A DNA stretch of 10,763 bases from a virus (IMGVR_UViG_2526164690_000049), one strand, 5' to 3'. Shown: positions 1-3,484, counted from the stretch's first letter. Notes: generated by a model not told the origin, from the sequence alone. Made by a program: numbers and translations.

Positions 1-171
1 AATCTTTATGGCTGGCGTGAACTCCAGCCCGTCATCAAAGCGCCTGCCTATATGTATCTGGCACGCCTCAAGCGATGCGGCAATGTATCCGCTGATTAAC
101 TGGTCTTCCTCGTCGCCATCGATGCGGCAATGGAGTTTCACTTCTTCCAGGGTGATAAGTTCTTCTGTCAT
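1..171 (-). CDS. Phage head-tail connector protein, gp6-like (N-terminal 57 codons only; gene runs off the window start)
   Basis: Minus-strand ATG at 171-169 overlaps the TGA stop (170-168) of the upstream gene (ATGA coupling). Frame stays open to position 1. Translation MTEELITLEEVKLHCRIDGDEEDQLISGYIAASLEACQIHIGRRFDDGLEFTPAIKI has the LITLEE..K.H.RID.D.ED.LI N-terminal signature I associate with gp6-like connectors. Absent from the supplied ORF track because no stop lies inside the window. Confidence 0.6.
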   Translation of the reverse strand, partial: MTEELITLEEVKLHCRIDGDEEDQLISGYIAASLEACQIHIGRRFDDGLEFTPAIKI

Positions 172-506
172 TTTTCCGCGCCCTCACGACAAAGAATTTC
201 AAGGCGTGTCCTGGCGGCATCCGGCAGCGGTTGCCCGATGATATTCAGTACACGCCCCGCCAGCGGCCCCGTATTGACCTTTATCCGGCTGGTGGCGTTG
301 ATGTCCTTCCTGTAGCGTATCCATATCCTTACCGTTCCAGTCGCCAGTTCTGCACCCGATGAAATGGCCTCCTTGCTGCTGATCATGTTCACGCTTGCCC
401 AGAGTGTGTGACCGTCCACCCACGTTTCGAGTATTTCGCCGGTTATATCCCTGGTCTGTTTCAGGGTCTGAATCGTTACCCTGTCACGCAGTCGCCCTAT
501 GTTCAT
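168..506 (-). CDS. Phage head closure / head-tail adaptor protein (SPP1 gp16-like family), 112 aa
   Basis: ORF 168-548 trimmed to ATG 506-504, which overlaps the TGA (505-503) that ends the portal's alternative-frame C-terminus. Motifs GRLRDRVTIQ, TW..LWASV, RIWIRYRKDI, LEILCRE fit the head-closure family pattern as I remember it. AGGGAG lies about 10 nt upstream. Confidence 0.75.
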   Translation of the reverse strand: MNIGRLRDRVTIQTLKQTRDITGEILETWVDGHTLWASVNMISSKEAISSGAELATGTVRIWIRYRKDINATSRIKVNTGPLAGRVLNIIGQPLPDAARTRLEILCREGAEK

Positions 507-531
507 TCCGGTTTTTCTCCCTCGCTGATTT

Positions 532-1713
532 TTACTTCCTGTTTCCATGCCTGGCTGAACTCATCACCACCATCACGCGGGGACAGCCCTTCACGTTCGC
601 GGGCTTCGTTCGGGCACATAACGCCGGATTTGATGCCGCGTTCATAGGTGGCAAAGCGTTCGCCAGGTGTGGCCCGTAACAGGTCCGCGCTGTCAAACTC
701 CACCTGATACCGGATACCAGGTACAGGTGAGGCCACCAGCAGGGCGTTTTTATCTGCTGTTCAAAGTTCGCCAGCCACGGGCGCATCGTCATGGTGAGAA
801 ATGCGCGGCTTGCCTCGCTGAAATTGCTGTAGGTGCTGTTGCTGTATTCCTGCAGAAAAATCGGCGAGACGTTGAACATTCGGGCGATGTCTTCAATGGT
901 GAAGCGACGGGAGGCCAGCCATTCAGCATCCTGATTACTCATGCCCAGCTGCTGATAGCTCATACCCCCTTCAAGGATGGGCGTTTTTCCGGCGTTTCTG
1001 GCCCCTTTGTAGCGTTCCAGTGCGGCTAATGCCTGTTTGCCCTTCACGCCGTCCAGCCATTCGCCTGACGTGATAACCCCTGCCGCCATCATGCCATCAC
1101 GCATCACGCTCGCGCCGTGGCGTTGTTGGGCCAGCCCAAGCCCCAGCGATTCGCGGCAGATGGTTACAGGTGAGCGCCCCATAAAACCGTCATCCGTGGA
1201 GTAACGAAGGTGGAGAACCTCCCACGGTAAATAGTTGCGGGTGTTTCCGGTGTAGGCGTCAGTGATGCAGTAGCGCCAGTTATGCTCACCTGTCTGCTCA
1301 ACGTTCACCGACTGCGGCGGGTAAGGATGTAAAGCCACCGGAAAACCATCACGCCCCCACTGAATCACCGCATAAGCATTACCGTTTAACAGGCAGTGGC
1401 GGATCATCATTCGCTTAAACTGGTAGGGGGTTTGCCATGCGTTCGGGCGCTCGTTGAGGATGTGATCGACCGGATGAGAATCAAGCCACTCTCGGGCCTC
1501 CTTCCCCTTCTCATTGCGTACCAGGTACAGGTAACACGGCATGGTAGCCACCGCCTCAGAGATGACCGTGACGGCGTTCATGACGGCGGGCAGTGATTCC
1601 GCTGTCCCCGATGATACGTACTCACCCGCCCCCGTGTTCGATGTGCCAGCCAGCGCCATAAACTCATCAAGCGTCATGCTGCGCTGCTCTTTTTTTCTTC
1701 TGAAAGGCCACAT
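532..1713 (-). CDS. Phage portal protein, HK97 family; reading frame breaks near 745-753 and the authentic C-terminus continues in the frame of ORF 503-736
   Basis: 393-aa ORF with portal-like core (LLNGNAYAVIQW, TMRPWLANFEQQI). After EQQI the frame gives an implausible Cys/Trp/Pro-rich tail, while the -1 frame reads NALLVASPVPGIRYQVEFDSADLLR...NEAREREGLSPRDGGDEF and ends at 503 in ATGA overlap with the next gene. Start ATG 1713-1711 lies 1 nt after the protease stop, with GGGGGTG upstream. Confidence 0.8.
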   Translation of the reverse strand: MWPFRRKKEQRSMTLDEFMALAGTSNTGAGEYVSSGTAESLPAVMNAVTVISEAVATMPCYLYLVRNEKGKEAREWLDSHPVDHILNERPNAWQTPYQFKRMMIRHCLLNGNAYAVIQWGRDGFPVALHPYPPQSVNVEQTGEHNWRYCITDAYTGNTRNYLPWEVLHLRYSTDDGFMGRSPVTICRESLGLGLAQQRHGASVMRDGMMAAGVITSGEWLDGVKGKQALAALERYKGARNAGKTPILEGGMSYQQLGMSNQDAEWLASRRFTIEDIARMFNVSPIFLQEYSNSTYSNFSEASRAFLTMTMRPWLANFEQQIKTPCWWPHLYLVSGIRWSLTARTCYGPHLANALPPMNAASNPALCARTKPANVKGCPRVMVVMSSARHGNRK

Positions 1714-1714
1714 A

Positions 1715-2287
1715 TCACACCCCCGCTAAATCCGTCCACCAGCGGCGATTATCCGCACGCGGCATTTTTTCGGGGTGCTGCTCGTACAGGGAGCGGCGGG
1801 CCAGCTCCACGCCGGAATCAGGGTAAGCCGGTACGGATGTAACGGTAATTTCGTATAGTTCCGCCACCAGCACGGTGCGCACGCATGGATCTGTTGTGGT
1901 ATCCCATACATCCTTACGGGAACGAAAGCCAAAGCTCATGCCGGATATATCACCTCGTTTAACCAGTTCGATAACGTCGCGCCCTGTACTGGTATCCGGT
2001 GGGGTCAGTTCAAAGCGTAACCCTGTTTCGTCCTCTTCCAGTTTCAGCGTGCCGGAACGGGTGCGCCCCAGTAACATGCTGTGGTCATGCTCATACAGGC
2101 CGCGAACGTCATTACCCGCCGCAAGCCACTCAGTAAACGCCCCCCGCTGGAATTTTTCGTAAAACTCCCCCCATAGCAGTTCTGAAAGCTTATCCCAGCG
2201 AACAACGTAGCCCGTCAGCGTACCGGCTCCGCTGGTAGTGATTTCCGATGACCGGATTTCCATACTCTTCATAATTTTTTCACCCAT
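1715..2287 (-). CDS. Prohead maturation protease, HK97 family
   Basis: 190-aa ORF between capsid and portal genes; sequence GYVVRWDKLS...EHDHSMLLGRTRSGTLKLEED fits the HK97 prohead protease family as I remember it. Alternative in-frame starts at 2272 (GGTGA 7 nt upstream) and 2263; true start uncertain. Confidence 0.8.
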   Translation of the reverse strand: MGEKIMKSMEIRSSEITTSGAGTLTGYVVRWDKLSELLWGEFYEKFQRGAFTEWLAAGNDVRGLYEHDHSMLLGRTRSGTLKLEEDETGLRFELTPPDTSTGRDVIELVKRGDISGMSFGFRSRKDVWDTTTDPCVRTVLVAELYEITVTSVPAYPDSGVELARRSLYEQHPEKMPRADNRRWWTDLAGV

Positions 2288-2296
2288 AAAACACTA

Positions 2297-2316
2297 AAGG
2301 GGCTTTTAAGCCCCTT
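2297..2316 (-). promoter_or_regulatory. Intercistronic GC-rich stem-loop between capsid and protease genes (possible partial terminator or mRNA stabiliser)
   Basis: AAGGGGC (2297-2303) and GCCCCTT (2310-2316) form a perfect 7-bp stem around loop TTTTAA. It sits between the capsid stop (2327) and the protease start (2287); on the minus strand it is followed by UAGUGUUUU. Confidence 0.4.
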
Positions 2317-2326
2317 CTGTATGCTG

Positions 2327-3484
2327 TTAATCGTCGTCCTGTGGCAGTTCCAGAATCTTGATCGCGTTCGAATCCACCACGCCACCGCCTAAATATTTCT
2401 GCGTGAAAATTTTGATGAAGCCCGGCTCTGTGAGGTTGTCCGGTCTGGTGCGAACACCTGTTTCGTGATCAACAATGTAGTAACCGCGTTTGAAGTCACC
2501 CAGGGCAATAACGTTATCAGGCATAAACTCCAGATATTCGACCGGAAGGCCCAGCAACGTATCAGGATCACCCGCCTGTAAACGGTCGCGCCAGATGTAA
2601 TCACCGTTCGCGTTCTTCACCTTCTGAAGTTTTGCCGCCGTCGTGGAGTTAACCACCCAGACCGCGTTTTTGCGGTATTTTTTACGTAATGCAAATTTCA
2701 GGTCGATCAGCGGGTCAGCAGATGTCCACGCCAGAGATTCGGAAGGTTTAATTACCTGTAACGTACCAAAATCACGCTCTTTGTCGTTCTTCTCTGCACG
2801 GGGTACGGATAAAAAGCCTTTTGCTTTTTTGTCACCGTCGCCCACAACCAGATCGCTTTCTTCGGTTTCCGTGAAGGTGTCGCCAATCTCACCCGTCAGC
2901 CATGAAAGGATGTCCACATCGGAAAAATCCACGATTTCCTGTGTGGTGCGCGGGTACGCATAGACCGGATACAGCTTAATGCTCACCTCGTTAATCTGCG
3001 GGGTGCTGGTCTGTTCGCGTGTCTTACCCTCTTCACCGTGGTTAACGGTCGCACCGCCAGCGGAAACAAGCTGCTTAAACTCGTTGCTGCTGATTTTCTT
3101 CACGGTACAGATGCGGCGCATGGTGGATTCATCCGTCAGCATTCGCATGATTTCGGTGTTCAGTTCGGGGATAACGGTATAACCACCATCAGCGGGAACG
3201 CCTGTACTTAATGCGCGGGTTTCACCTGTCAGGATGTAGTTGCGGAGTTCTGCCGGGTCAGTGGTCTGGCTGCTTTTACCTGGCTTGCTGCGCTCTTCGT
3301 CTGCAATGGCTTCAAGGCGGGAAATGTCTTTATCGAGGGATTCAGCTTTAGCGCGTAATTCGTCAAATTTTGCGCCCTCAGCATCGTTAAGACTGCGGTT
3401 TTCTTTTTCCGCGTTCTCCAGCATGTCGCGCATCTGATTTTTAATGGCGGTTTTCTGCTGGCGTAATTCGATTATTCTCGGCAT
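2327..3484 (-). CDS. Major capsid protein, HK97 fold, with N-terminal coiled-coil scaffold-like domain
   Basis: 385-aa ORF. The N-terminal 100 aa are charged and helical (ELRAKAESLDKDISRLEAIADEE), typical of an HK97-type delta domain, followed by a body of typical HK97 capsid length and composition. It is the first gene of the head operon. Confidence 0.88.
   Translation of the reverse strand: MPRIIELRQQKTAIKNQMRDMLENAEKENRSLNDAEGAKFDELRAKAESLDKDISRLEAIADEERSKPGKSSQTTDPAELRNYILTGETRALSTGVPADGGYTVIPELNTEIMRMLTDESTMRRICTVKKISSNEFKQLVSAGGATVNHGEEGKTREQTSTPQINEVSIKLYPVYAYPRTTQEIVDFSDVDILSWLTGEIGDTFTETEESDLVVGDGDKKAKGFLSVPRAEKNDKERDFGTLQVIKPSESLAWTSADPLIDLKFALRKKYRKNAVWVVNSTTAAKLQKVKNANGDYIWRDRLQAGDPDTLLGLPVEYLEFMPDNVIALGDFKRGYYIVDHETGVRTRPDNLTEPGFIKIFTQKYLGGGVVDSNAIKILELPQDDD

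Follow-up and report, generated by a model that had tools for sequence, protein, structure and literature searches.

Does a satellite-like island with P4-type integration functions build its own phage heads? The question is raised by a stretch of viral DNA of 10,763 nucleotides (IMGVR_UViG_2526164690_000049; hereafter the window, to which gene coordinates refer unless one of the reference records L001, L002, L003 or L008 is named), in which positions 1-3484 carry a set of HK97-type head genes and the remainder encodes replication, regulation and integration functions. In our reading, held with a probability of about 0.95, positions 1-3484 are that half of the packaging operon which serves head morphogenesis, in a gammaproteobacterial capsid-forming phage-inducible chromosomal island (cf-PICI). 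The element would be closely related, in mosaic fashion, to the prototype cf-PICI EcCIEDL933 of Escherichia coli O157:H7 EDL933 (Alqurainy et al., 10.1101/2022.09.08.507074; structure in 10.1101/2025.02.11.637232), and would work by the mechanism deduced from that prototype.

An HK97-type head module

All plausible genes of the window except one lie on the minus strand, so that transcription runs from high to low coordinates. The first head gene in this direction encodes an HK97-fold major capsid protein of 385 aa (2327-3484, minus strand, as are the other four; PF05065, E = 2.3e-61), with a delta-domain-like N-terminus and an SxGxxAD maturation motif at residues 93-99. It is followed by a prohead serine protease of the HK97 family S78 (1715-2287, 190 aa; PF04586 Peptidase_S78, E = 7e-48; phrog_80, E = 2.2e-67), the portal (503-1713, 403 aa in relatives; PF04860, E = 7.8e-76), the head closure/completion protein Hc1, resembling HK97 gp7 (168-506; PF05521, E = 9.7e-24; phrog_25, E = 7.2e-35), and the 5' part of the gene for a gp6-like head-tail adaptor, Ad1 (<1-171; PF05135, E = 6.5e-9). 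Only the first 57 codons of Ad1, a protein of 98 aa in relatives, fall inside the window, its gene being cut by the left edge; the full-length relative in L001 (11875-12171) matches the Ad1 family phrog_40 (E = 7.9e-36). For Hc1, the RefSeq start in L001 corresponds to position 506, and an alternative ATG occurs upstream at 548.

The profile matches of all five proteins far exceed the cut-offs, and the module thus defined comprises capsid protein, S78 protease, portal and both gp6-like and gp7-like connectors. The initial annotation, made from the sequence alone, had claimed major capsid, prohead protease, portal, head closure and connector genes in this order, and the profile searches that it proposed as a check recovered each of them on the minus strand at the positions given above. 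Its call stands with two qualifications: the portal frame is broken at position 746, and the connector gene is incomplete at the window edge.

All 385 residues of the capsid protein (385/385) are identical to chain B of PDB entry 9GYI, deposited as 'Major head protein', and it has the residues that the cryo-electron microscopy (cryo-EM) paper on the EcCIEDL933 capsid (10.1101/2025.02.11.637232) singles out: S93, which opens the SxGxxAD motif, D257, K290, D295, E319 and R345. The next-closest solved capsid structures are those of the Rhodobacter capsulatus gene transfer agent (6TB9/6TBA, E of about 3e-46), another HK97-fold system with a small capsid.

The head genes adjoin one another or share 1-4 nt, as expected of a single operon. 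Between the capsid stop and the protease start, a consensus scan detected a G+C-rich hairpin with a T-rich tail (2296-2317, minus strand), which may be a partial terminator or attenuator. A putative terminator is annotated at the equivalent place, after gp5, in the HK97 record. Speculatively, given its detection by consensus scan, the post-capsid hairpin could tune the capsid-to-portal ratio. The intergenic region upstream of the capsid gene (3485-3747, minus strand) presumably holds the promoter of the packaging operon; a search of the minus strand upstream of the capsid gene found no match to the sigma-70 consensus, and no promoter was assigned. This region also contains a tandem direct repeat, GTTGTTCCAC / GTTGTTCAC (3693-3715, minus strand), about 210 nt upstream of the capsid start codon, which may be an activator site of the packaging operon.

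The whole island in near-identical genomes

The window was compared by Megablast with 5,426 complete E. coli genomes. At least 80% of its length was found in 63 of these, with a best identity of 99.9%, and the genomes holding it are mostly Shiga toxin-producing E. coli (STEC) of serogroups O111, O26, O103 and O157. The genome with 99.9% identity (NZ_CP077567, here L001) was used to describe the island beyond the left edge of the window. Past Ad1 it encodes an HNH protein (PF01844; phrog_144), a 60-aa open reading frame (ORF), a TerS of the P27 family (PF05119; phrog_83), TerL (PF03354 and PF20441; phrog_9) and a 93-aa ORF, after which the island ends. The same HNH, TerS and TerL genes are presumably present in the genome from which the window derives, judging from these near-identical genomes.

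The island in L001 is inserted within tqsA, the two halves of which form its flanks. Alignment to the uninterrupted tqsA of strain K-12 set the junctions, with the 9-bp core TGCTGTTAT at both ends, and the island measures 14,878 bp between the two copies of this core. From the small ORF distal to TerL through int, the L001 island was found to contain no tail, tape-measure, sheath or holin/lysis genes; likewise, searches of the window's ORFs against Pfam and PHROGs gave no tail or lysis match. The absence of tail genes over more than 10 kb, on which the initial annotation had built its satellite hypothesis, is thereby confirmed, and the leftward extension that it had called for, made in L001, reveals HNH, the 60-aa ORF, TerS, TerL and a small ORF, followed directly by split tqsA.

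Two further observations concern island DNA beyond the window. A 23-nt direct repeat, TGACTACACCAGTGACTACACCG, occurs at L001 8158-8180 and 22803-22825, about 80-150 nt inside each island end, and a similar repeat of the ACTACACC type is present in the O157:H7 island; these repeats are probably arm-type binding sites of the integrase. As for cos, the terminal sequences of LR881103.1, a linear record, map to the interval that separates the 60-aa ORF from TerS in L001 (about 11231-11251); this is only a lead, which would hold if the record ends are physical ends.

Taken together with the window, the island has an integrase at its end, an AlpA-type regulator and a primase-replicase with an origin of its own; it encodes its own capsid protein, protease, portal (frameshifted in the window), Ad1 and Hc1 and, as seen in L001, its own HNH, TerS and TerL, in the published order of the family and free of tail and holin/lysis genes. 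Its 14,878 bp between attachment repeats with the TGCTGTTAT core fall within the size range of about 10-18 kb that applies to cf-PICIs. The left half of the island, int-alpA-primase-ori, is shared with classical Gram-negative PICIs such as EcCICFT073 and EcCIED1a, which are reported in the literature to have left halves that can be identical to those of cf-PICIs; AlpA-dependent induction by a helper would likewise be shared. Classical PICIs, however, use the capsid proteins of their helper and redirect its packaging (Rpp, cos mimicry), whereas the island described here supplies capsid, portal, connectors and TerL itself, all of them 'forbidden' components in the PICI model.

A rival reading is that the element is a P4-like satellite that remodels helper capsids instead of building its own. 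Its P4-type integrase, AlpA, D5/P4-alpha-like primase and Icd-like small gene would all suit such a satellite. Capsid protein, protease, portal, connectors and terminase are, however, all encoded by the island itself, and these are exactly the components by which SatelliteFinder separates cf-PICIs from P4-like elements, and searches of the window against Pfam and PHROGs gave no match of the Sid, Psu or Delta type. We consider a P4-like satellite refuted by the complete head and terminase set, and give this reading next to no credence.

Gene order as a family signature

In the window and L001 the genes run capsid, protease, portal, Hc1, Ad1 and then HNH, TerS, TerL. The HK97 record, by comparison, has TerS, TerL, portal, protease, capsid, Ad1, Hc1 and then the tail genes. 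The window therefore does not follow the canonical HK97-type order and represents a genuine permutation of it, as had been claimed. The weight that the initial annotation gave to this order as something unusual does not stand, as the order had already been published as a hallmark of the family: proteobacterial cf-PICIs are described as having capsid-protease-portal-connectors followed by hnh-terS-terL, and a later structure paper (10.1101/2025.02.11.637232) takes that gene list as its search criterion. Comparison with described cf-PICIs, which the annotation had also recommended, shows the order of the island to be identical to the published proteobacterial one.

Relatives identified through the capsid protein point in the same direction. 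The nearest true phage is Pseudomonas phage VW-6S, with 37% capsid identity, the canonical order and tail genes. Records labelled as phages and having more than 40% capsid identity include two elements of 15-16.5 kb from other hosts, diverged in sequence from the window's island. One is LR881103.1 (vB_KppS-Ant, 16.5 kb; capsid 65% identical), with the same capsid-protease-portal-Hc1-Ad1-HNH-TerS-TerL order, and the other OR544139.1 (Pasteurella phage Pmp8, 15.3 kb; capsid 58% identical), with the same order through TerL; both carry int and a primase. The order is thus kept at 58-65% capsid identity in elements of Klebsiella-type and Pasteurella hosts. The capsid-first, terminase-last arrangement is a conserved organisation of the family, and, far from being an anomaly, the 'non-canonical' order serves as a diagnostic mark of proteobacterial cf-PICIs. 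There is also a slim possibility that placing the capsid gene first, with the hairpin directly behind it, is an expression-ratio device selected in satellites.

Two of the records contain features of their own. In LR881103.1 (L003, 'Escherichia phage vB_KppS-Ant'), TerL is followed by a 765-aa tape-measure-like ORF (2036-4333) that is absent from the window's island; its full length is covered by a match to the tape-measure family phrog_2854 (E = 2e-176), and Pfam gives no match. A tail-type gene in a cf-PICI-like element is unexpected under the family definition. The sparsely annotated 106-kb record PQ569648.1 ('Klebsiella phage P12620-1', L008) has a cf-PICI-like capsid-protease-portal block at its end (14272-17293), with a capsid protein 64% identical to that of the window, and it resembles host chromosomal DNA into which a satellite has integrated more than it does a phage genome.

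The head and packaging proteins of the island all belong to ordinary phage families. With the HK97 head module (gp1-gp7, gp74) it has in common an HK97-fold capsid protein with a cleaved N-terminal domain, an S78 protease, a portal, a gp6-like Ad1, a gp7-like Hc1 and an HNH-assisted cos terminase. These likenesses, and the disrupted portal of the window, would fit a decayed HK97-like prophage from which the tail, lysis and early regions were deleted, that is, a cryptic remnant and not a dedicated satellite. HK97 itself has tail genes, which the island lacks. The ends of the island, however, are clean, at a 9-bp core inside tqsA, with a PICI-type int-alpA-primase-ori left half. Moreover, the compact architecture and the gene order recur across genera at just 58-65% capsid identity, whereas true phages have the canonical order and capsid proteins no more than 40% identical to that of the window, and the published phylogeny separates these modules from those of phages by long branches. 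An ordinary or degraded prophage was rejected on the basis of the clean attachment site in tqsA, the cross-genus architecture and the absence of tail and lysis genes over the 14.9-kb island of the 99.9% relative, and a prophage remnant is accordingly regarded as highly improbable.

A mosaic sibling of EcCIEDL933

The prototype was represented by a 15.4-kb island located between phoQ and roxA in the O157:H7 strain FRIK804 (L002), compared in place of that of EDL933. It fits the published description of EcCIEDL933 by size, host serotype and gene order, the published gene numbers being 1786 for the capsid gene and 1792 for a hypothetical gene, six genes downstream. In L002 the capsid protein, TerS, Ad1 and the 60-aa ORF are the same RefSeq proteins as in L001. 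Also shared are the operon order (capsid, protease, portal, Hc1, Ad1, HNH, small ORF, TerS, TerL), the presence of int and alpA, and the absence of tail and lysis genes. The portal, on the other hand, is frameshifted in the window, unlike in L002.

BLAST comparison of the two islands gave three segments. The packaging segment, which extends from the small ORF past TerL up to and including the 81-aa ORF that precedes the gene for the single-stranded-DNA-binding protein (to window position 5002), is 97.0% identical over 8,167 nt, and the alpA-int end is 91.6% identical at the DNA level. Between them, window 5003-8491 has no similarity to L002 except for a weak stretch of 70.8% at 6802-7208. The replication modules differ accordingly, with a D5-type primase and GGTGAAYAG iterons in the window and a DUF927 protein in L002, as do the attachment sites (inside tqsA versus between phoQ and roxA) and the sizes (14.9 kb for islands of the window's type versus 15.4 kb). 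As judged from these alignments, the window's island is a mosaic sibling of the prototype, with a shared packaging module, another replication module and another attachment site. The replication and early module has been exchanged cleanly, its flanks being 92-97% identical and 5003-8491 unrelated.

Membership of the capsid-forming PICIs, put forward tentatively in the initial annotation, is well supported by the identity of the capsid protein with 9GYI, the residues published for it, and the combination of HNH, TerS and TerL with the lack of tail genes in the 99.9% relative.

Proposed mechanism

Experiments with EcCIEDL933 have demonstrated induction by a helper phage, small capsids encoded by the island and a need for helper tails only. 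Every gene of its module is required for transfer, the 60-aa ORF only partially. The EcCIEDL933 capsid differs from that of HK97 in its triangulation number, T=4 instead of T=7, and in lacking a covalent cross-link (10.1101/2025.02.11.637232). Helper induction, small island capsids and dependence on the helper for tails alone are expected in the window's island from its identical capsid protein and its 97%-identical module. In such a model a helper siphophage such as HK106 would switch on alpA, and the island would excise and replicate from its own origin. The capsid protein, processed by the island protease at S93, would assemble around the island portal into a small T=4 shell of the HK97 fold, of about 47.5 nm and too small for the helper genome. 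The island HNH-TerS-TerL machinery would then cut and package island DNA only, Hc1 and Ad1 would finish the neck, and tails made by the helper would attach.

Three points weigh against this interpretation of the window. HNH, TerS, TerL and attL, in the leftmost 3.9 kb of the island, lie outside the window and are known solely from near-identical genomes. The replication module and the attachment site differ from those of the prototype, and induction and particle formation by this variant would have to be extrapolated from EcCIEDL933. Finally, the portal is frameshifted in the window, and if the deletion is real this copy would form no particles and would not transfer, because EcCIEDL933 portal mutants do not transfer.

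The family, its mechanism, the capsid structure and the gene order have already been published, and this variant is present in dozens of sequenced genomes. The cf-PICIs were described in 2022-2023; genetics, a cryo-EM capsid structure and a dedicated detector (SatelliteFinder) exist for them, and they are reported in about 13% of Enterobacteriaceae genomes. The importance of the locus beyond correct annotation is therefore small; what the variant does show is modular exchange, one and the same packaging module being combined with another replication module and another attachment site.

A private frameshift in the portal gene

The window differs from L001 by 8 substitutions and two 1-nt deletions. 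The first deletion, at position 746, contracts an A-run of the portal coding strand from A6 to A5. The frame is shifted after codon 322 of 403 and the last 81 residues are lost, including the end of the PF04860 domain, which is split between two ORFs (532-1713, covering profile positions 1-274, and 503-736, covering 280-321). None of the 74 complete E. coli genomes having this segment carries the deletion, and the portal is intact in all 74. A programmed frameshift in the portal gene was considered and rejected, given that the in-frame A6 version is present in 74/74 of these related genomes. The second deletion (9539-9540) contracts A7 to A6 in the spacer just 3' of int, and it too is private to the window, with 0 occurrences among 574 genomes having the segment. 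Two private homopolymer contractions in 10.8 kb suggest a read or assembly error, and the portal deletion is probably a sequencing or assembly artefact.

If it were a genuine mutation, the window would represent a true but transfer-defective cf-PICI, inducible and replicating, with neither portal vertex nor packaging. This would agree with the frameshift being present in the sequence as given, with the removal of 81 C-terminal residues including the end of PF04860, and with the abolished transfer of prototype portal mutants. The deletion is, however, an A6 to A5 homopolymer contraction found in 0/74 complete genomes, and the second private contraction at 9539, found in 0/574, completes the usual signature of read or assembly error. 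A defective copy is thus considered unlikely. Slimmer still is the chance that a real frameshift defines a naturally portal-less cf-PICI, persisting either as a replication-competent dead end or through a portal supplied in trans by a co-resident cf-PICI; if true, such an island would be a natural test of head-module complementation between islands. An intact cf-PICI with an artefactual frameshift therefore remains the preferred interpretation.

Replication, regulation and integration functions

Upstream of the packaging operon lie a small conserved hypothetical gene (3776-4000, minus strand, 74 aa; phrog_1957, E = 7e-42) and a gene for a PerC-family transcriptional activator (4126-4398, minus strand; PF06069, E = 8.4e-44). 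Nearly identical terminator-like hairpins occur on the minus strand 3' of PerC (4102-4119) and 3' of the 74-aa ORF (3748-3765). Both consist of AGCCGGAG(A/C)AATCCGGCT followed by a T-run, and they flank the last gene before the packaging operon. PerC/Pch homologues regulate the locus of enterocyte effacement (LEE) pathogenicity island in enteropathogenic and enterohaemorrhagic E. coli (EPEC/EHEC). The satellite carrying this activator occurs mainly in STEC strains, and it is conceivable that the PerC gene links the island to virulence regulation.

The replication region comprises genes for a single-stranded-DNA-binding protein (SSB; 4409-4819, minus strand; PF00436, E = 4.2e-17), an 81-aa ORF (4816-5061) and a D5/P4-alpha-type primase-helicase, the replication initiator (5349-7166, minus strand; PF08706, PF19263 (DUF5906) and PF03288; phrog_864, E = 4e-193). 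Just 3' of the primase gene, an A+T-rich spacer holds an iteron-type replication origin (5113-5335) with ten copies of GGTGAAYAG in both orientations. Ten copies compare with 0.12 expected, and this number was reached in 0 of 200 shuffles; the G+C content of 5001-5500 is 0.386. The iteron origin, the alpA gene and the P4-type int of the initial annotation are hence all borne out, the last two by PF05930 and by PF13356 with PF00589.

Further upstream are three small early genes, named in RefSeq and with matches to phrog_285, phrog_15327 and phrog_6196, encoding a DUF4222 protein (7163-7462; PF13973), a hypothetical protein (7469-7789) and an Icd-like/repressor-like protein (7782-7985), all on the minus strand. 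They are followed by a YlcI/YnfO-family gene on the plus strand (8183-8488). Most of a 308-aa ORF at 8005-8931 is spurious; the O157:H7 island has an intact 247-aa gene, of which the 5' part of this ORF (8374-8931, minus strand) is a truncated remnant. A search of Rfam gave no family at gathering score within the window.

The right end of the window carries the gene for the AlpA-family regulator/excisionase (8984-9172, minus strand; PF05930, E = 5e-18; phrog_2790) and that for the P4-type tyrosine integrase (9546-10763, minus strand; PF13356, PF22022 and PF00589; phrog_1). Integration linked to a tRNA was considered and rejected, there being no tRNA in the window and the insertion site lying inside tqsA. 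The integrase start codon annotated in relatives is located 12 nt past the right end of the window.

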